Below, piece by piece: positions 367 to 63,887 of a stretch of DNA of 64,000 nt. Origin of the DNA: Escherichia coli (GTDB lineage: Bacteria > Pseudomonadota > Gammaproteobacteria > Enterobacterales > Enterobacteriaceae); assembly GCF_009931435.1 (NCBI RefSeq), contig NZ_CP043414.1; one strand, given 5' to 3'. Position numbers and translations under genes: made by a program. The notes under the pieces were generated by a model. It saw nothing but the letters and a program-made list of their open reading frames with translations. It did not search any database and was not told the DNA's origin. Position 1 is the first letter of the stretch. Each line of letters begins with the position of its first letter.

Positions 367-1718
367 TCTTCTCTGACTGGCCGTGGCGTCACTGGCGGCA
401 AGTGCGGGGAGAAGCCATCGCCTTACGTCTCAATGATGAGCAACTCAACTGGCGCGAGCTTTGTGTTCACGTCGATGAATTAGCCTTAGGCTTTGCGGCG
501 CAGGGCGTGGTTGAGGGCAGCGGCGTGATGTTGCGGGCGTGGAATACGCCGCAAACGCTGCTCTCCTGGCTGGCGCTACTGCAATGCGGGGCGCGGGTGT
601 TGCCCGTGAACCCTCAGCTGCCGCAACCGTTGCTTGAAGAATTGCTGCCCAATCTAACGCTGCAATTTGCGCTGGTGCCGGAAGGGGAAAACACATTTTC
701 GGCGTTAACGTCGCTGCACATTCAGCTGGTTGAAGGCGTACATGCTGCGGCGTGGCAGCCAACTCGTCTGTGCTCAATGACGTTGACCTCGGGTTCTACC
801 GGGTTGCCGAAAGCCGCTGTCCATACTTATCAGGCCCATCTTGCCAGCGCCGAAGGGGTGTTATCGCTGATTCCGTTTGGCGATCACGATGACTGGTTGC
901 TCTCTTTGCCGCTGTTTCACGTCTCCGGTCAGGGAATTATGTGGCGCTGGTTATACGCTGGTGCGCGGATGACGGTACGTGATAAACAGCCGTTGGATCA
1001 CATGCTGGCAGGCTGTACTCACGCATCGCTGGTGCCGACGCAGCTCTGGCGTTTGCTGGTTAACCGCAGTTCCGTTTCCCTGAAAGCAGTGTTGCTTGGC
1101 GGCGCGGCGATCCCGGTCGAGTTGACGGAACAGGCGCGCGAGCAGGGTATTCGTTGCTTTTGTGGCTATGGTCTGACCGAGTTTGCTTCCACGGTGTGTG
1201 CGAAAGAAGCCGACGGTCTGGCGGACGTCGGTTCGCCGCTGCCCGGTCGGGAAGTGAAAATCGTTAACGATGAAGTGTGGCTGCGGGCTGCCAGCATGGC
1301 AGAAGGTTACTGGCGTAACGGACAACTGGTGCCGCTGCTCAATGACGAAGGCTGGTACGCTACGCGCGATCGCGGCGAGATGCATAACGGTAAACTGACC
1401 ATTGTCGGGCGCTTAGATAATCTGTTCTTCAGTGGTGGCGAGGGTATTCAGCCGGAAGAGGTGGAGCGTGTAATTGCTGCACATCCTGCGGTTTTGCAGG
1501 TGTTTATCGTCCCCGTTGCGGACAAGGAGTTTGGTCATCGACCGGTAGCGGTGGTGGAGTATGACCATCAAAGCGTTGATCTCAGCGAATGGGTGAAAGA
1601 TAAGCTGGCCCGTTTTCAACAACCGGTGCGCTGGCTGACGCTTCCACCTGAACTGAAAAACGGTGGTATTAAAATTTCACGTCAGGCGCTAAAAGAGTGG
1701 GTGCAACGCCAGCAATAA
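363..1718 (+). CDS. menE: o-succinylbenzoate--CoA ligase (451 aa)
   Basis: 451-aa ORF with adenylate-forming enzyme motifs ([16 protein letters not shown]); synteny next to pmrD and arn. Confidence 0.95.
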
Positions 1719-1827
1719 TTAACCATCCGTTGCACTTCTCATTTCTGCCATTCCATTGCCGTTGATAAAGAGTTTATCTGTTAATCTGTAAATTGATGTG
1801 AAAACTCTTAGCAAACAGGATAATGCA

Positions 1828-2094
1828 ATGGAATGGCTGGTCAAAAAATCGTGCTGCGATAAACAAGATAACAGACATGTACTTATGCTCTGCGATGCTG
1901 GCGGCGCGATAAAAATGATCGCCGAAGTGAAGAGTGACTTCGCCGTGAAAGTGGGCGATTTACTCTCCCCTTTGCAGAATGCGCTTTACTGCATTAATCG
2001 TGAAAAGCTACATACGGTGAAAGTTCTCTCGGCATGCAGCTACAGCCCCGATGAGTGGGAACGGCAGTGTCAATCGGCTGAGAAAACTCAGTAA
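1828..2094 (+). CDS. pmrD: PmrD connector protein (88 aa)
   Basis: ORF 1798-2094 contains [10 protein letters not shown]...; start taken at the internal Met to give the 88-aa PmrD I recognise. Its 3' end overlaps the 3' end of arnF convergently. Confidence 0.9.
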
Positions 2095-2474
2095 CGTTGT
2101 TTTGTCGTGGGCAGGAAAATCAGCATCAACCCGCTCATAATACAGGCTACTCCCAGTAGTGCTTTCAGCGAAAAAGTCCCTTCCCAGCCGGGAAGTACCA
2201 TTGAAGCAATCCATACCAGCACATAACTCATACTGAGCAAGGCATAGGCTTTGCTTAGTGCAAGTTTATGTAGTGTTTTATACCAACAAAAAACGGAAAG
2301 CAGATAACCCAGCAGCCCGAGTAACAGTATCCGGGCATCCAGGCCAAAAGCTAACAGCGCCGCGATAAAATCCCATAAGTGCGTCATCGGCGGTAGATGA
2401 CTCGCCGCATAACCCAGGCTTAATTGCGCAGCTGAGGCAATAATGACGCTGAATAATCCCCACATCAGGCCCAT
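2088..2474 (-). CDS. arnF: undecaprenyl-phosphate-L-Ara4N flippase subunit ArnF (128 aa)
   Basis: C-terminal 128 aa of the 222-aa ORF match ArnF ([14 protein letters not shown]...); start ATG shares one nucleotide with the arnE stop. Confidence 0.9.
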
Positions 2475-2809
2475 TACACCGTACTCCCGAGGATCACAAT
2501 GCCGCCAATAATGAACGCCACCCCACACCAGTGACGCAGTGATACCGGCTCGTGCCACAGTTTTACTGCAGCCAGCGTCACCCAGACAAAATTCAGACTT
2601 AACATCGGGTAGGCAATGCCTACCGGTACGTTCTGCAAGACCAGCAGCCAGAGCACCATGGCAAGGCCAAGACAAGCCAGCGCCAGTCCCAGCCACAGCA
2701 CGATATGTCTGCGCCGTTTGTTTATCGCCACAAAGCAGGTTGCTTGTTTCTGACACAACTGCCCGGCAACGCTAAGCAAGCTGGCAAAGACTAATGTTAG
2801 CCAGATCAT
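2474..2809 (-). CDS. arnE: undecaprenyl-phosphate-L-Ara4N flippase subunit ArnE (111 aa)
   Basis: 111-aa small multidrug-resistance-like membrane ORF; 4-nt overlap with the arnT stop. Confidence 0.9.
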
Positions 2810-4458
2810 TTGGGCCGATACTGAATCAGCACCAGACGCTCCTGACGATCGATGGCATCTGCGGGCGGAATGGCGAGACTGTTGATATCTTCATCGCGGT
2901 CAACCGAAAGCACGAGTGTAATAACCCCCTCCTGACGATGTTGATTAAGCCAGTTTGCGAACTCATCACCGCTGACAAATCTCCCTTTCGCATCCGGATA
3001 ATTTAGGCCGTATTTCAATTCCCCTGTCTGGCGATACATGATGATGTCATCACGTCTCAGGCTCCATGCCAGACCAGCAGCAACGCCGACGCTATCGGTA
3101 AGAATATAGCGGCTTGGCTGCAGTGATTCTTGTGTCGTCTCGACAAAAAATTGCGGATGTTTTCCTTCCATGACTCTGTCAGGAATTGAAAATCCTACCA
3201 GCAACGCCAGCCCAAGCGGGCAAAGTGCGGCAAAAGGCCAGTTTTTTTCGACGTTTGTTAAGGTATACCAGCCGAAAAATGCCCATAGCGAAAAAATCGA
3301 CCATGCACAGAAGACTTTATAGCTCTCGAAGGTTTGCCACACCGGCGTGCTCATAGGTCCCCAGGGGGAGACCACAAACGTAGCAATAATGCCAGTGACG
3401 CCAAAAGCGATGTTAATCCAGCCATTAATCCGCAACGCCAGAGGATTATTTTTTGCTGCCAGCAAAGCGTAATGCGCCATCAGCATTGCCAGAGGTGCAA
3501 AGCAGGAAAGAATATAGGTGGGCAATTTGCCTTTGGCAACGGAGAAAAACAGCAGCGGCATTACCGCCCAGCTCAATAAATAGACGGTTGCGGAATGCTT
3601 GCGGTTTTTCCAGCCTGTGTACAGTGCTCCGGGGAGTAATCCCAGCCACGGCAGGCTACCGGCAATGATGACCGGCAAGTAGTACCAGAACGGAGCTCTA
3701 TGCTGGGCATCATCCAGTGCAAAGCGTTGAATATGCTCAACCCAGAAAAAATAGTGCCAGAAGTCAGGCTCCCGCTGCGCTATCGCCAGTCCCCAGGGGA
3801 GAACCGTCAGTACGCAACTGATAACCGCCAGCCAGCCGTAAATAAAGAGATCTTTCCAGCGTTTTTGCGTTGCAACCCATGGCAGCACGCTTAATACCGG
3901 CACGGCAAGGGCGAGAAAACCTTTGGTCATCACCCCCATGCCGCAGGTGATTCCCAGCAGTAAAAATCCCGCGCTTTTGCCTTTCCACGTCTGTGCCTGC
4001 ATTGCCAGCCAGAAGCTGCACATTCCCGCCACCAGCCAGAATGCAATAAACGGATCGAGCACGGCATAAGTGCCAATGGCATAGACAATAAACAGTGAGA
4101 GATAAATCACTGCGGCGAGTAGAGCCAGACGTTTATCGCGCCATAAGCGCAGGGTAAACCAGGTCACCAGCGCGGCAGTTAACAGGGTCGCAAAGATAAC
4201 GCCTGCCCGCACACCAAAGTTATTTGCGCCAAATAGCCATTGCCCAATACTGTTAATCCAGTATCCGGCAATGGGTTTTTCGAAATAACGTAGCCCTAAC
4301 ATATGGGGCACAATCCAGTCGCCGGATGCCAGCATTTCCCGACTGATTTCCGCATAACGCGTTTCATCTGGTTGCCAGAGCAGACGCGTGCTGATCGGTA
4401 ACAGGTAATAGCAGGCAATAAACGCGAAGAGGCCGATAAGGTAACGTACCGATTTCAT
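2806..4458 (-). CDS. arnT: undecaprenyl-phosphate-alpha-L-Ara4N transferase (550 aa)
   Basis: 550-aa polytopic membrane ORF ([13 protein letters not shown]...); position in the arn operon. Confidence 0.95.
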
Positions 4459-5348
4459 CAGCGACTACCCGCAATTTGTTGGCAACCCAGCCAGCCTTCA
4501 CGTCCGGCAATATTTCCGCGAACAACTTGTCCGAGCGGCAACGTCCCTGATAACAGTTCGCTTAAAGGGCAAAATGTCACGCCTTCCTGGGCTGCGCGTT
4601 TCAGGAGATCCACAAAATTATGCTGATAAGCGCAGCCTTCAACTTCTGCATGAATGGTATAAACCGGCGTGCCTTTATCTCGCAGGATGCGGTTGAGTAA
4701 CCAACCGTTAAAATCTTCAGCTTTCACATCCCGACCAATCACTTCATCCCAGGTGGGTAAGGTCACCGGAATTTGCGCCGTGCCGGGTTTTCCTGTTTCG
4801 AGCAATGGACGAAACGGCATAGCCCCACGACAATCGCTGTTGTAGCGCAAATGGAACGCTTCTTTTGCTTCGATCACCTGCTGGTCGGCACGCCAGCCAG
4901 CGGCTGCGGAGCAGGTTACCGGTTGGCCGATAATTTCTTCCAGGGTGCGAAGGCCGCGTGCGATATCGTCGACCATTGTTTGCCGATCCCAGTTACTGCT
5001 ATGGGCTTGCCAGGCATGGTGATCCCAGGCGTGCAGGCCGACTTCGTGATGTTTAGCCGCTTCACGAATGATATCGGCATTGGCATGACCAATCTCTTTA
5101 CCTGGCCAGGCCGTACCTGCCAGTAAAATATCCCAGCCATAAAGCGATGCCGCGTTTGAGCGCAGCATCTTCCACAAAAACTGTGGCTTCACCAGTCGCC
5201 AGAGATGGCGGCCCATATTGTCCGGGCCGACGCTGAAAAAAATGCTGGCCTGAATATTATGCTTACTCAAGATTTCCAGCAGACGCGGCACGCCTTCACG
5301 GGTGCCACGAAAGGTATCGACATCAATGCGTAAGCCTACTTTTGTCAT
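4458..5348 (-). CDS. arnD: 4-deoxy-4-formamido-L-arabinose-phosphoundecaprenol deformylase (296 aa)
   Basis: 296-aa polysaccharide-deacetylase-like ORF; overlaps arnA and arnT ends. Confidence 0.95.
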
Positions 5349-8298: not shown

Positions 8299-9456
8299 TT
8301 ATTGTCCTGCGAGTTGCTGAAGGGCTGTGATGACGCGGTCGGCATCGGCGGTGGTCATATCCGGGAACAGCGGCAACGAACAGATGCGTTCGCTATTCCA
8401 TTCGGTATTCGGTAACGACAGCTCGGGAAAACGCTCGCGATAATATTTTTGTGTGTGAGCGGCGCGGAAATGTAACCCGGTACCAATGCCTCTTTCTTTT
8501 AACGCTTCCATCAACGCATCGCGACTGATACCACAACGTTGTTCATCGACACGAATAATAAACAGATGCCAGGCGTGAACGTGCGGCCAGGCGGGAAGGC
8601 TTAATGGCTCAAAGGGGAGAGCTGCCAGAGCTTGCTGATATTGCAGAGCAATTTCGCACCGACGGGTGTTGAGGTGCTCTAATTTGGCTAACTGGGTCAG
8701 GGCAATCGCGGCGTTAATATCGGTCAGATTATACTTATAGCCCGGCGTTAAGACTTCAGCTTGCGGTGCACGGCCCCAGGTTTGTCTGTCATATGCATCG
8801 ACACCCAGACCGTGAAATTTCAGCATCCGTAGCTGGCGGGCAAGGTTTTCATTATCAGTAACAATCAGGCCACCTTCCGCACAGGTAATATTTTTGATGG
8901 CGTGAAACGAAAAAATAGCGGTACCTTTTGCGCCAATATGTCGGCCTTTGTAATACGTACCGACGGCATGGGCAGCATCTTCGATAACTGCGATGCCGTA
9001 ACGTTCGCCAATGGCGCGAATGGCGTCAATATCTGCTGGCGCACCGGCATAATGCACCGGAATGATGGCTTTAGTGCGTGGCGTAATGGCTGCTTCGATC
9101 GTTTCAGGCGTGACCATCAGCGTATCGCGGTCGACATCCACCATTACCGGCGTTGCACCCAACAAGGAGATCATATTGAGGGTTGAAACCCAGGTCAGGG
9201 AAGGCGTAATCACTTCATCGCCCTTGCCAATTTCCAACGCCATTAGCGTGATATGCATTCCGGCGGTGGCTGAACTGACCGCGATGGCATGCTGATTTCC
9301 CGTCAACTGGCAAAAGGCTTGTTCAATCGCCTGATTCTTCGGACCGGTTGTGATCCAACCGGATTCGAGAACCTCTTTAACTGCTGCGAGTTCCTCCACG
9401 CCCATTGCTGGTCGCGAAAAAGGCAAAAATTCTGACATTGCTTTTCCTTCCGCCAT
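8299..9456 (-). CDS. arnB: UDP-4-amino-4-deoxy-L-arabinose--oxoglutarate aminotransferase
   Basis: DegT/ArnB-type PLP aminotransferase ORF. Start chosen at MAEGKAM (385 aa); the ATG at 9438 (MSEFLPF) has the better RBS (GGAAGGA) and may be the true start. Confidence 0.9.
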
Positions 9457-9536: not shown

Positions 9537-9553
9537 ATTAACTTAACCTTAAG
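9537..9553 (-). promoter_or_regulatory. Putative PmrA (BasR) box upstream of arnB
   Basis: On the arn strand the sequence reads CTTAAG-GTTAA-GTTAAT, a hexamer direct repeat with 5-nt spacing about 80-95 nt upstream of the arnB start, resembling the PmrA half-site arrangement. Confidence 0.45.
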
Positions 9554-17366: not shown

Positions 17367-18267
17367 AGTGGTTATTGGCTGCAAGATCGGCTTCGCTTAG
17401 CTGGATGGCTGCGAGCACCTGGTCACGATCAATGCCCTGTTCCAGCATGCGCAAGGCAATTTTAATGGCTTGTTCATGCATGCCTTCCTGCCAGCCAATT
17501 TGATGCCCTTCCTGCCGTAGCCGTTCAGCAATAGTCATCAATCTCTCCTTTTGTAGTGGTGAACGTTCGGCAATCTCCTCAATAAAACGGGTGAAACGGG
17601 AGGTATCGCCGCATTGCAGCAGATAATTAAACAGCGTTTGTAGCTGGCTGTCATTAGTGAAGCCTCTAACCAAAAGCGTGGTGATCCTGTCGACCATACC
17701 GATTAAATCGCGGTCGCGAATATGCTTTTGAATCAGTTCCAGCAGAGCTATACGCCGATGTTGCATGATCTCATCGTCAGGCACGATGGTGATATCCACC
17801 AACGGAAAAGCTTCGGTGTACAACTGCCGGGCAAGTTGCGGATCATCAAACTCATCCAGCCAGTTAAGTGAGTATGGGTAGGGCGAGGTTTCGCCGTGAT
17901 AAAACAGCAACGGCACCACCAGAGGGACTCTGTCATAGCCTTTGTCCAGGTGACGCTGCATGGCGGCGGTGGCATAGCGCATTAGCCGAAAAGCCATATT
18001 CTTTTCTGCGGAACTTTGATGTTCAATCACGCAGTAGATATAGCCGTCACCATCGCTGGTTTCCACCGACCACAAAACATCCGAGTAGTAAGCGCGTAAA
18101 CTTTTTTCAATAAAGCTGGTGGGTTCCAGGCGTAAGGTTTGCAGGTTGCAAAGTTTACGCAGTGGCTCCGGTAGATGTATTTCGAGAAAATCCCGCGCGG
18201 TTTCGGGCGAGAACATAAAGGTTTTAAACACCGCATCATGCGGGGAGGAGGTTGTTGATTCGGTCAT
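17365..18267 (-). CDS. rpnB: Rpn-family recombination-promoting nuclease, PD-(D/E)XK / transposase_31-like (300 aa)
   Basis: 300-aa ORF ([19 protein letters not shown]...) at the position of yfaD between glpC and rhmA; equating yfaD with rpnB is from memory. Confidence 0.8.
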
Positions 18268-32624: not shown

Positions 32625-35600
32625 ATGAATATGCGGATTATCTTTCTACGCAAGGAGTATTTATCTTTACTCCCGTCAATGATTGCATCTCTTTTCTCTG
32701 TTAACAGTGTTGCGGAGGTTTTGGATTCATGCCAGGGATATGATATCAAAGCGAGTTGTCAGGCCAGCAGGCAAAGCCTTTCAGGCATTACGCAGGACTG
32801 GAGCATCGCCAATGGGCAATGGGTGATTTTTTCGGGTATGGCCAATAATGCTAGCGGTGGCGCCGTATTTTTGCAACAAGGAGCGGAGTTTTCTCTATCG
32901 CCAGAAAATGAAACTGGAATGACTCTGTTTGCCAATAATACTGTCTCAGGAGAATATAATAATGGCGGGGCAATATTTGCTAAAGAAAACTCAACGCTGA
33001 ATCTTACTGATGTTATTTTTTCCGGTAACGTCGCAGGCGGCTATGGTGGCGCAATCTATTCTTCTGGTACTAATGATACTGGTGCCGTCGATTTACGTGT
33101 CACTAACACCATGTTTATCAATAACATCGCTAATGATGGCAAAGGTGGCGCAATTTATACCATCAATAATGATGTCTATTTAAGTGATGATGTTTTTAAT
33201 AATAACCAGGCATATACATCAACAAGTTACAGTGATGGCGATGGTGGTGCAATCGATGTCACCGATAATAATAGCGATATCACGCATCCGTCAGGTTTCA
33301 CAATAATAAATAACACCGCATTTACAAATAACACTGCCGAAGGTTATGGCGGGGCAATTTATACCAATAGCGTGACGGCTCCCTATCTTATTGATATTTC
33401 TGTTGATGACAGCTACAGCCAGAACGGCGGTGTGTTAATCGATGAGAACAATTGCGCAGCAGGCTATGGGGATGGTCCTTCCACTGCGGCGGGCGGCTTT
33501 ATGTATCTCGGCTTAAGTGAAGTTACCTTTGATATTGCTGACGGAAAAACGCTGGTTATCGGCAATACAGAGAATGATGGAGCTGTTGACTCTATTGCTG
33601 GTACCGGGTTGATCACCAAAACAGGTTCCGGCGATCTGGTACTTAATGCAGATAACAATGACTTTACTGGTGAGATGCAGATTGAAAACGGTGAAGTTAC
33701 CCTGGGTCGCAGCAACTCCCTGATGAATGTCGGAGATAATCATTGCCAGGACGATCCGCAAGACTGCTACGGTCTGACGATAGGGAGTATTGATAAGTAC
33801 CAGAATCAGGCAGAGCTAAATGTTGGCTCCACCCAACAAACCTTTGTGCACGCATTGACGGGCTTTCAGAATGGCACTTTAAATATCGATGCTGGTGGCA
33901 ATGTTACTGTTAATCAAGGCAGTTTTGCTGGCACCATCGAAGGTGCTGGTCAGCTCACCATTGCGCAAAACGGCAGCTACGTGCTGGCAGGGGCGCAGTC
34001 GATGGCGCTAACTGGCGATATAGTCGTTGATGATGGCGCGGTGCTTACGCTAGAAGGCGACGCGGCAGATCTCGCCGCTCTCCAGGACGAGCCGCAGTCG
34101 ATCGTGTTAAACGGCGGTGTGCTCGATCTCTCTGATTTCTCCACCTGGCAGAGCGGCACATCATACAACGATGGCCTTGAAGTCAGCGGCAGCAGCGGAA
34201 CGGTTATCGGCAGTCAGGATGTGGTAGATCTTGCAGGCGGAAACGATATGCATATCGGCGGCGACGGGAAAGATGGCGTCTACGTGGTGGTCGATGCGGG
34301 TGATGGGCAGGTCAGCCTGGCAAATGACAATCAATACCTCGGCACAACGCAAATTGCTTCCGGTACGCTGGTGGTGAGTGACAACTCGCAGCTTGGAGAT
34401 ACCCACTATAACCGCCAGGTTATCTTTACCGATAATCAACAAGAAAGCGTGATGGAGATTACTGCCAATGTCGATACTCGCTCTACAACGGTTGAGCATG
34501 GGCGTGATATTGAAATGCGCGCCGACGGTGAAGTGGCAGTTGATGCGGGGGTAGACACGCAGTGGGGCGCACTGATGGCTGACAGCAGCGGGCAGCATCA
34601 GGATGAGGGTAGCACATTGACTAAAACGGGTGCTGGCACCCTGGAGCTGACCGCCAGCGGTACTACGCAGTCTGCGGTACGTGTTGAAGAAGGTACCCTG
34701 AAAGGCGATGTTGCGGATATTTTTCCTTATGCTTCGTCGCTGTGGATTGGTGACGGAGCAACGTTCGAGACTGGCGCAGATCAGGATATCCAGTCTATTG
34801 ATGCTACTTCCAGCGGCACTATCGACATCAGTGATGGCACCGTTTTGCGCCTGACGAGTCAGGATACTTCCGCCGCACTGGATGCCTCGCTGTTTAACGG
34901 CGACGGTACGTTGGTGAATGCCACCGATGGCGTGACGTTGACAGGCGAGCTTAATACTAACCTGGAAACTGACAGCCTGACCTATCTTTCCGATGTGACG
35001 GTTAATGGTGATCTAACCAATATGTCCGGTACAGTCAGTCTGCAAAATGGCGTCGCTGGCGATACGCTCACGGTAAACGGTGATTACACCGGCGGCGGTA
35101 CGTTGTTTCTCGACAGCGAATTAAACGGCGATGACTCGGTAAGCGACCAACTGGTGTTGAACGGCAATACCTCGGGTAACACGACCGTGGTGGTTAACCC
35201 CATTACCGGCACTGGTGAACCGACTTCTACAGGTATTAAAGTGGTTGATTTCACTGCTGATCCCACGCAATTTCAAAACAATGCGCTGTTTAGTCTTGCG
35301 GGCAGCGGCTACGTTAATATGGGAGCGTATGACTACACGCTGGTGGAAGATAACAACGACTGGTATCTGCGATCGCAAGAAGTCACTCCGACGCCGCCGC
35401 CCGATCCGGACCCGACTCCAGATCCTGATCCCACGCCGGATCCTGATCCAACACCCGACCCGGCTCCAGCCCCTACGCCTGCCTACCAGCCGGTGCTGAA
35501 CGCCAAAGTTGGTGGCTATCTCAATAACCTACGTGCGGCAAATCAGGCATTTGTGATGGAGCGACGCGATCACGCTGGTGGCGATGGTCAGACGCTGAAT

Positions 35601-36389
35601 TTACGTGTTATCGGCGGAGATTATCATTACACGGCGGCAGGGCAGTTGGCCCAGCATGAAGACACTTCTACGGTACAGCTTAGCGGCAACTTGTTAAGCG
35701 GATACTGGGGCGATGATGGCCAGTGGATGCTAGGGGCCGTGGGCGGCTACAGCGATAACCAGGGTGACAGTCGATCAAACATGACCGGAACTCGCGCTGA
35801 TAACCAGAACTACGGTTATGCCGTTGGGCTGACCTCAAGCTGGTTTCAGCACCGTAGCCAAAAACAGGGGGCCTGGCTGGATAGCTGGCTGCAATACGCG
35901 TGGTTTAACAATGATGTTTCCGAACATGAAGATGGCGTGGATCATTACCACTCATCGGGGATTATCGCCTCGCTGGAAGCGGGGTATCAGTGGTTACCGG
36001 GGCGTGGTGTGGTGATTGAACCACAGGTGCAGGTGATTTATCAGGGTGTGCAGCAGGATGATTTTACCGCTGCTAACCATGCGCGGGTATCGCAATCGCA
36101 GGGCGATGATCTTCAGACGCGGTTGGGGATACACAGCGAATGGCGTACCGCTGTGCATATCACGCCAACCCTGGATCTGAATTATTATCACGATCCCCAT
36201 TCGGCGGGGATTGAAGAAGATGGCAGCGCTATCAGTGACGATGCGGTGAAGCAACGGGGTGAAATAAAAGTGGGGATAACAGGCAATATAAGTCAGCGAG
36301 TTTCCCTGCGTGGCAGCGTGGTGTGGCAGAAAGGAGACGATGGTTTTGTCCAAACGGCTGGGTTTCTATCGATGAGGGTGAAATGGTAA
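32625..36389 (+). CDS. yfaL: AIDA-I-type autotransporter adhesin (about 1250 aa)
   Basis: Signal-peptide-like N-terminus, long beta-helical passenger with repeated GGAIY motifs, proline-rich linker, and a C-terminal beta-barrel translocator ending in aromatic residues. The true start may be the ATG at 32631 (MRIIFL). Confidence 0.85.
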   Translation: MNMRIIFLRKEYLSLLPSMIASLFSVNSVAEVLDSCQGYDIKASCQASRQSLSGITQDWSIANGQWVIFSGMANNASGGAVFLQQGAEFSLSPENETGMTLFANNTVSGEYNNGGAIFAKENSTLNLTDVIFSGNVAGGYGGAIYSSGTNDTGAVDLRVTNTMFINNIANDGKGGAIYTINNDVYLSDDVFNNNQAYTSTSYSDGDGGAIDVTDNNSDITHPSGFTIINNTAFTNNTAEGYGGAIYTNSVTAPYLIDISVDDSYSQNGGVLIDENNCAAGYGDGPSTAAGGFMYLGLSEVTFDIADGKTLVIGNTENDGAVDSIAGTGLITKTGSGDLVLNADNNDFTGEMQIENGEVTLGRSNSLMNVGDNHCQDDPQDCYGLTIGSIDKYQNQAELNVGSTQQTFVHALTGFQNGTLNIDAGGNVTVNQGSFAGTIEGAGQLTIAQNGSYVLAGAQSMALTGDIVVDDGAVLTLEGDAADLAALQDEPQSIVLNGGVLDLSDFSTWQSGTSYNDGLEVSGSSGTVIGSQDVVDLAGGNDMHIGGDGKDGVYVVVDAGDGQVSLANDNQYLGTTQIASGTLVVSDNSQLGDTHYNRQVIFTDNQQESVMEITANVDTRSTTVEHGRDIEMRADGEVAVDAGVDTQWGALMADSSGQHQDEGSTLTKTGAGTLELTASGTTQSAVRVEEGTLKGDVADIFPYASSLWIGDGATFETGADQDIQSIDATSSGTIDISDGTVLRLTSQDTSAALDASLFNGDGTLVNATDGVTLTGELNTNLETDSLTYLSDVTVNGDLTNMSGTVSLQNGVAGDTLTVNGDYTGGGTLFLDSELNGDDSVSDQLVLNGNTSGNTTVVVNPITGTGEPTSTGIKVVDFTADPTQFQNNALFSLAGSGYVNMGAYDYTLVEDNNDWYLRSQEVTPTPPPDPDPTPDPDPTPDPDPTPDPAPAPTPAYQPVLNAKVGGYLNNLRAANQAFVMERRDHAGGDGQTLNLRVIGGDYHYTAAGQLAQHEDTSTVQLSGNLLSGYWGDDGQWMLGAVGGYSDNQGDSRSNMTGTRADNQNYGYAVGLTSSWFQHRSQKQGAWLDSWLQYAWFNNDVSEHEDGVDHYHSSGIIASLEAGYQWLPGRGVVIEPQVQVIYQGVQQDDFTAANHARVSQSQGDDLQTRLGIHSEWRTAVHITPTLDLNYYHDPHSAGIEEDGSAISDDAVKQRGEIKVGITGNISQRVSLRGSVVWQKGDDGFVQTAGFLSMRVKW

Positions 36390-36397
36390 TCGCTGTC

Positions 36398-36515
36398 TGA
36401 CCGGCACTATTGCCGGATGCGGCGTAAACGCCTTATCTGGCCTACGGGAGCATTTGTAGGCCTGATAAGACGCGGCAAGCGTCGCATCAGGCATTGGCAC
36501 GGTTGCCGGATGAAT
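36398..36515. repeat. BIME / REP cluster between yfaL and ubiG
   Basis: TGCCGGATGCGGCGTAAACGCCTTATCTGGCCTAC and GTAGGCCTGATAAGACGCGGCAAGCGTCGCATCAGGCA motifs. Confidence 0.7.
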
Positions 36516-36528
36516 CCAAACAACAACC

Positions 36529-59789: not shown

Positions 59790-59982
<193 letters not shown>

Positions 59983-63638: not shown

Positions 63639-63731
63639 AAAAAAAACCGGATGCGAGGCATCCGGTTGAAATAGGGGTAAACAGACATTCAGAAATGAAT
63701 GACGGTAATAAATAAAGTTAATGATGATAGC
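63639..63731 (-). ncRNA. micF: MicF antisense sRNA (93 nt)
   Basis: The reverse complement reads GCTATCATCATTAACTTTATTTATTACCGTCATTCATTTCTGAATGTCTGTTTACCCC...CCGGATGCCTCGCATCCGG followed by eight T: the MicF sequence with its terminator hairpin. Confidence 0.85.
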
Positions 63732-63887
63732 GGGAGATATTCTAGTTGCGAGTGAAGGTTTTGTTTTGACATTCAGTGCTGTCAAATACTTAAGAATAAG
63801 TTATTGATTTTAACCTTGAATTATTATTGCTTGATGTTAGGTGCTTATTTCGCCATTCCGCAATAATCTTAAAAAGTTCCCTTGTAT

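Follow-up and report, generated by a model that had tools for sequence, protein, structure and literature searches.

In Escherichia coli, the convergent genes pmrD and arnF share the last 7 nt of their coding sequences, and we found that this tail-to-tail overlap is real, ordinary and already known, from the reference annotation, from an excludon catalogue of 2025 and from a map of Rho termination of 2021. We analyzed it in a window of 64,000 nt (the whole stretch of DNA under study, from contig NZ_CP043414.1 of RefSeq assembly GCF_009931435.1). The explanation that we favor, and that we regard as probable, is a short overlap of the usual kind without a dedicated terminator, such that Rho ends each transcript within the opposing gene, as has been shown for pmrD and would hold for the arn operon, with antisense RNA as a by-product. 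Nothing points to the 7-nt overlap itself being either selected or a dedicated regulator. It brings no new biology, since its annotation, its cataloguing and the measurement of read-through on the pmrD strand all predate this analysis.

The overlap and its counterparts in relatives

The earlier note on this DNA had claimed a convergent 7-nt overlap of the pmrD and arnF 3′ ends, and the sequence together with the list of open reading frames bears this out (Table 1). Read directly from the sequence, TCAGTAA is common to the two coding sequences, in a phase (123:213) that sets the third codon positions of pmrD and arnF opposite each other. Because the stop codons are unambiguous, this 3′-3′ overlap is independent of the choice of start codons. 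The pmrD frame runs from an ATG at 1828 to a TAA at 2092-2094 and encodes 88 aa (MEWLVKK...AEKTQ), and the arnF frame runs on the minus strand from 2474 down to a TGA, the reverse complement of 2088-2090, and encodes 128 aa ending in TTKQRY. Family models and structure show that both members of the pair are genuine genes: PmrD matches Pfam PF11183 (E=1e-45, aa 1-82) and NCBIfam NF011994, as well as PDB entries 2JSO and 4HN7 (E=2e-53), which are solved structures of the 88-residue E. coli PmrD, while ArnF matches the NCBIfam equivalog NF002816 (E=1e-40, aa 4-122).

Table 1. Features at and around the pmrD/arnF junction, in window coordinates
Feature	Position	Strand	Basis
PhoP-box-like direct repeat CGTTGATAAAGAGTTTA	1760-1776	+	pattern match, 3 mismatches
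Candidate -10 hexamer TAAATT, 12 nt downstream of the PhoP-box-like repeat	1789-1794	+	predicted
pmrD coding sequence	1828..2094	+	Pfam PF11183, NCBIfam NF011994, PDB match; identical coordinates annotated in the syntenic record
Weak, strain-specific hairpin GCTGAG-AAAA-CTCAGT (2077-2092) across the pmrD stop, then U-rich AACGTTGTTTTGT	2077..2107	+	consensus scan
Convergent coding overlap TCAGTAA, 7 nt	2088..2094	both	direct reading
arnF coding sequence, last gene of the arnBCADTEF operon	2088..2474	-	NCBIfam equivalog NF002816, annotation
arnE coding sequence, 111 aa	2474..2809	-	NCBIfam NF011625 (E=3e-63), annotation
pmrD-strand read-through, antisense to the entire arnF gene and to a portion of arnE	2095..2551	+	Adams et al. 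2021, K-12
Presumed arn read-through, antisense to pmrD and its promoter	1700..2087	-	untranslated past the arnF stop, no terminator-like hairpin
Predicted PmrA (BasR) box CTTAAGGTTAAGTTAAT, ~100 nt upstream of arnB	9537..9553	-	YTTAAK-N5-YTTAAK, 1 mismatch

Locally, menC, menE and pmrD on the plus strand converge on arnF-E-T-D-A-C-B on the minus strand. Within the men and arn operons, the same-strand junctions menC/menE, arnE/arnF, arnT/arnE, arnD/arnT, arnA/arnD and arnC/arnA overlap by 1 or 4 nt (363-366, 2474, 2806-2809, 4458, 5345-5348 and 7327), which is the usual signature of translational coupling. The window is collinear with the sequence of strain 2013C-4282, the closest complete genome examined, at ~98% identity and with two exceptions, at ~17480-17720 and 33565-36521, which comprise a rearranged stretch beside an ISNCY transposase of 2013C-4282 and ~2.9 kb without counterpart in the compared 50 kb. 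Rfam models identified the MicF sRNA at 63639-63732 on the minus strand (116.8 bits), and an naRNA4/CssrE repeat-derived element at 59902-59978 that scores on both strands.

The overlap is a regular feature of the species. The pmrD/arnF locus is present in 5419 of the 5426 complete E. coli genomes, and the 60-nt junction is ungapped in 5397 of them. The RefSeq annotation of K-12 MG1655 carries the identical 7-nt overlap (arnF 2372892-2373278, pmrD 2373272-2373538), as does that of three further E. coli strains spanning the identity range of the locus. The syntenic record has 7 convergent pairs in its first 50 kb, of which pmrD/arnF alone overlaps, the other six being separated by gaps of 38-255 nt; the junction is thus at the short extreme of a normal distribution and no anomaly. 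In E. coli, 58 convergent coding overlaps have been counted and ascribed to stop-codon mutation; the terminators of such genes must lie within the partner gene, and one of the intrinsic type is predicted for just 20% of the genes concerned in E. coli (Lillo and Krakauer 2007, PMC2174442). The frame in which pmrD enters arnF is the one that reaches a stop codon soonest, the other two giving overlaps of ~53 and ~72 nt. In E. coli, frameshifts have given rise to rare, longer forms of PmrD, of 103 and 109 aa (P0018 and P0004), which would stretch the overlap to ~53-72 nt.

We then compared the junction across relatives. The 7-nt overlap of E. coli (TCAGTAA) has a 7-nt equivalent in cryptic Escherichia (TCAGTGA, in E. 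whittamii and Escherichia sp. E1V33), where PmrD is 58-60% identical and both tails differ while the 7-nt geometry is retained. Salmonella enterica has a 6-nt overlap, TCATGA, made of two abutting stop codons, and Citrobacter amalonaticus has a 3-nt gap (TGA-cga-TTA). The junction is therefore tight (-3 to +7 nt) in Escherichia, Salmonella and Citrobacter, with a length and a phase that differ between genera. The overlapped codons fall outside the family profiles, which cover aa 1-82/84 of 88 for the PmrD models and aa 4-122 of 128 for the ArnF model, and between relatives neither protein has a C-terminal tail of constant sequence or length. Among E. coli strains, the most variable stretch of the locus is 2062-2082 (pmrD codons ~79-85), just upstream of the overlap, where the PmrD tail occurs as QSAEKTQ, KVAGKTQ, KAAGKTQ or QSAGKTQ.

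An ArnF-based search of genome contigs returned 8 loci, all from close relatives (Escherichia and Citrobacter, not Klebsiella/Enterobacter), and a PmrD profile search of 1.84 billion representatives returned only 56 PmrD-family clusters. Distant PmrD homologues lie at unrelated loci and not beside the arn operon, for instance a Klebsiella-like "MEWWVKKV" type that adjoins an AMP nucleosidase gene, which indicates that the menE-pmrD-arnF order is confined to Escherichia, Salmonella and Citrobacter. Published work that places the origin of pmrD in that lineage, whether by invention or by acquisition, agrees with this clade-restricted arrangement (PMC2565834, PMC3140997). In one of the loci found, from Escherichia sp. 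MOD1-EC7003 (L010, 2501-2770), arnF appears disrupted: the match does not begin until residue 39, and the gene is cut short by an in-frame TAG 116 nt before the pmrD stop, pmrD being intact. An E. coli-type arnF (97% identity) was also found on a 274-bp contig of Alkalicoccobacillus porphyridii (L009) and on a 3.1-kb contig of a "Citrobacter sp." MAG (L003), which also has a Citrobacter-type arnF on another contig (L008); L009 and L003 give the impression of E. coli contamination, or of mixed binning, in the public assemblies concerned.

Transcript ends and read-through

It had been proposed that the overlap leaves no room for a terminator. A spacer is indeed lacking, and neither gene has a conserved intrinsic terminator at the junction, but terminators can sit inside an opposing gene, and here it is Rho that acts. 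Because spacer and conserved terminator are both missing, any full-length mRNA of pmrD or arnF is antisense to the other gene. The most direct evidence on where such transcripts end comes from E. coli MG1655, in which 3′ ends were mapped by Term-seq, and Rho-dependent regions by comparing DirectRNA-seq of bicyclomycin (BCM)-treated and untreated cells (Adams et al. 2021, PMC7815308). Supplementary file 2 of that study lists a Rho termination region at K-12 position 2372815 on the minus strand, antisense to arnE, with 163 upstream and 26 downstream reads without BCM, compared with 298 and 310 in its presence (Rho score 6.5, p=2e-21; PMC7815308). As pmrD lies on the minus strand in K-12, this signal represents pmrD-strand RNA that crosses all of arnF into arnE, and its read-through rises under bicyclomycin, as expected of termination by Rho. 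The best coordinate is 457 nt past the pmrD stop, which corresponds to ~2551 in the window when the offset is transferred from that stop, an imprecise end point given the 800-nt comparison windows and the single condition (LB, OD 0.5) in K-12 rather than in the present strain.

In the same tables, the interval 2372700-2373899 of K-12 holds no Term-seq 3′ end on either strand, which low expression could also explain, and no Rho region on the arn strand, the arn operon being poorly expressed in LB. A literature search combining pmrD with Term-seq returned nothing. The K-12 data thus answer in part the question raised in the earlier note as to where the two transcripts end, by placing a Rho region on the pmrD strand and no Term-seq end at the junction. 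They likewise support its claim of antisense read-through for the pmrD strand, while read-through from the arn operon into pmrD can only be presumed.

We also looked at the composition of the RNAs concerned. The pmrD-strand RNA is untranslated after 2094, and its C/G ratio in the first 160 nt past the stop is modest (1.1-1.7). On the arn strand, the region 1700-2087 is moderately C-rich, with a C/G ratio of 1.2-1.9 over most 78-nt windows; the consensus scan found no terminator-like site there, and folds were not significant. It is reasonable to infer that arn read-through is ended by Rho inside pmrD or its promoter region.

Based on these observations, we propose that the stop codons of pmrD and arnF, lying in poorly conserved tails, have drifted against each other to give overlaps of 7 and 6 nt or a gap of 3 nt, a short overlap being presumably neutral in C-terminal tails that are unconstrained. 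With no spacer and no conserved hairpin, each transcript would have to end within the other gene. Once the ribosome has left at the stop codon, the RNA beyond would be untranslated as well as antisense, and Rho would terminate it a few hundred bases further on, a step documented in K-12 on the pmrD strand and presumed on the arn strand. The antisense overlap would then be what genome-wide surveys record as a convergent excludon. Counting against this explanation are the tightness of the junction over three genera (-3 to +7 nt) and the 7-nt geometry of cryptic Escherichia, kept despite a PmrD identity of 58-60%; the tight junction could reflect selection for terminator-free, coupled genes instead of inertia.

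On the promoter side of pmrD, a PhoP-box-like repeat precedes a candidate -10 hexamer (Table 1). We rejected this match as evidence, the pattern being too degenerate: at 3 mismatches it occurs 182 times in the window, against 129 expected. The PhoP dependence of E. coli pmrD is known from published work (PMC3140997). Three tandem 8-nt units at 1771-1794, AGTTTATC, TGTTAATC and TGTAAATT, overlap both the PhoP-box-like match and the candidate -10. The operon that ends at arnF starts with arnB, annotated at 8299-9438 on the minus strand, and the PmrA box predicted upstream of it, with its single mismatch and in the right place, is convincing.

Regulatory and other alternative explanations

The junction may alternatively be a functional excludon maintained by selection, in which PmrA-driven read-through from the arn operon lowers pmrD, by collision, promoter occlusion or cleavage of the RNA duplex by RNase III, and so adds negative feedback on this connector of the PhoPQ-PmrD-PmrAB circuit, while PhoP-driven transcription of pmrD trims the 3′ genes of arn. 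We consider this unlikely, albeit the strongest of the alternatives. In its favor, no terminator separates the genes in any relative examined, the junction is tight in Escherichia, Salmonella and Citrobacter, pmrD-strand RNA reaches over arnF into arnE, and head-on collision of RNA polymerases is well established where E. coli genes converge. However, neither the length nor the phase of the junction is conserved between genera, and the antisense RNA appears to be limited by Rho. A negative feedback from PmrA to pmrD is known to be useful in Salmonella, but there it consists in repression of pmrD transcription by PmrA (PMC2565834, PMC3140997), and the feedback loop is reported to be absent in E. 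coli (PMC3140997).

Published transcriptome surveys bear on the same alternative. ExcludonFinder lists arnF-pmrD among 165 convergent excludons, called in at least 50% of 58 MG1655 transcriptomes, and its text names the pair as functionally related (Sanmartin et al. 2025, PMC12288877); yet because the coding overlap forces such a call whenever both genes are detected, the call carries little independent evidence of regulation. Overlap of the two transcripts is documented in the literature, by ExcludonFinder and by Adams et al., and is in any case logically required by the coding overlap. An antisense overlap between these genes is not a new idea, the pair being already catalogued as a convergent excludon (PMC12288877). 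The ExcludonFinder catalogue was also the only hit in a literature search for pmrD and transcriptional interference. In the supplements of p19 dsRNA capture, we found no entry for pmrD, arnF or arnE; that method rarely catches 3′ overlaps and misses weakly expressed genes. Table 1 of ExcludonFinder, which concerns K-12, also contains pmrR-basS, located outside the window, as a convergent excludon, and overlapping transcription is thereby reported for one more pair of genes in the PmrAB circuit.

A more specific proposal, to which we give slightly less credit still, is that the terminator-free junction has been selected as a second feedback, independent of the promoter, such that strong, PmrA-driven arn transcription silences pmrD through polymerase collision or RNA duplex formation, PhoP-driven pmrD transcription attenuates the flippase genes arnE and arnF at the 3′ end of the operon, and Rho sets the reach of the antisense RNA. 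A regulatory effect, if real, would mean antisense control on top of a textbook case of two-component cross-talk, through which lipid A modification and resistance to polymyxin/colistin are governed.

It is quite improbable that a cryptic intrinsic or bidirectional terminator, formed by 2077-2092 and the U-rich 2095-2107, is embedded in the coding sequence, which would fix the 3′ end of pmrD, and perhaps that of arnF, and reduce the antisense RNA to a few bases. The consensus scan did find one terminator-like site on the plus strand exactly at the junction (2077-2092, followed by AACGTTGTTT), its palindrome CTGAG/CTCAG can fold on both strands, a stronger hairpin followed by UUUU spans the junction of C. 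amalonaticus (-27.6 kcal/mol, L007), and, of the E. coli genes that overlap convergently, 20% are predicted to have an intrinsic terminator inside the partner (PMC2174442). Nevertheless, the stem has 6 pairs, of which 3 are G-C, with a fold of -17 kcal/mol, and the folding of the junction is no better than that of shuffled sequences (z = -1.4 on the plus strand, +0.2 on the minus strand). The stem is broken in K-12 (GCAGGG..CTCAGT) and in other E. coli lineages, and scans of the junctions of K-12, Salmonella, C. amalonaticus and E. whittamii returned no site. The U-run past the pmrD stop reflects the Lys/Arg codons with which the ArnF tail is encoded on the opposite strand. On the arn strand no U-tract follows the hairpin, and what the junction holds is only a strain-specific palindrome of 5-6 bp. 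Consistent with this, an Rfam search of 1500-3000 found no RNA family even at E <= 1. The K-12 interval free of Term-seq 3′ ends, and the Rho dependence of the termination downstream, likewise argue against an embedded terminator.

A separate hairpin of terminator-like form occurs ~100 nt before the arnF stop, on the sense strand of that gene (minus strand, 2180-2195); it reads CTTCCCGGCTGGGAAG, with GGACTTTTTC behind it, and encodes LPGWEGTFS. It recurs in K-12 and E. whittamii, is absent from Salmonella and C. amalonaticus, and is probably a by-product of the coding sequence.

Finally, the possibility of an annotation artefact, with one frame or the other not translated as far as its annotated stop, has next to no plausibility: the closest we found to support is the hypervariable C terminus of PmrD, with its rare frameshifted versions, against stop codons that are set by the sequence, full-length matches of both proteins to curated family models, the 88-residue E. 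coli PmrD structures 2JSO and 4HN7, and the same geometry in independent annotations. Taken together, these results favor an ordinary overlap with Rho-dependent transcript ends.

Comparison with known systems

According to Kato et al. 2003, PmrA in Salmonella reportedly binds the pmrD promoter, where repression is said to act. The Salmonella feedback resembles the circuit logic proposed for the junction, in that PmrA activity lowers pmrD expression (PMC3140997, PMC2565834). It differs in route, since PmrA there represses the transcription of pmrD rather than acting by antisense or convergent transcription, and in distribution, the loop being reported as absent in E. coli (PMC3140997, PMC2565834).

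The arnF-pmrD pair is like other convergent excludons in consisting of opposite-strand neighbors with overlapping transcripts, and this exact pair belongs to the MG1655 excludome (PMC12288877). The hallmarks of a functional excludon are mutually exclusive expression and processing by RNase III, whereas the call for arnF-pmrD is an all but automatic outcome of the overlapping coding sequences.

Ju et al. 2019 reportedly observed, by SEnd-seq, bidirectional terminators between genes that converge in E. coli. As in the systems of a 2022 preprint by Wang et al. (10.1101/2022.10.23.513370), pmrD/arnF is a convergent pair at which head-on encounters of polymerases are expected. The bidirectional terminators described there are, however, hairpins in an intergenic spacer that give sharp, overlapping 3′ ends, while pmrD/arnF lacks both a spacer and a conserved hairpin, and no sharp end has been mapped there (10.1101/2022.10.23.513370).

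A further likeness is to the Rho-terminated antisense read-through described by Adams et al. 2021 (PMC7815308), to which the pmrD strand corresponds by being untranslated past its stop and by ending in a bicyclomycin-sensitive region antisense to arnE. Compared with that class (PMC7815308), the evidence at pmrD/arnF covers one direction and one growth condition, at a resolution of ~800 nt and in K-12.

In its geometry, the junction falls in the class of convergent overlaps defined by Lillo and Krakauer (PMC2174442), with genes on opposite strands, a 3′ overlap of a few bases and stop codons within the last codons of the partner. As in that class, the overlap can be explained by stop-codon mutation, and any terminator would lie inside the partner gene. 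Its phase, 123:213, is that of the abundant 4-nt convergent class; its 7 nt depart from the modal overlap of 4 nt, which is no essential difference. The pmrD/arnF pair illustrates the compact convergent junctions of E. coli, in which transcripts end inside the neighboring gene by means of Rho and without a dedicated terminator.
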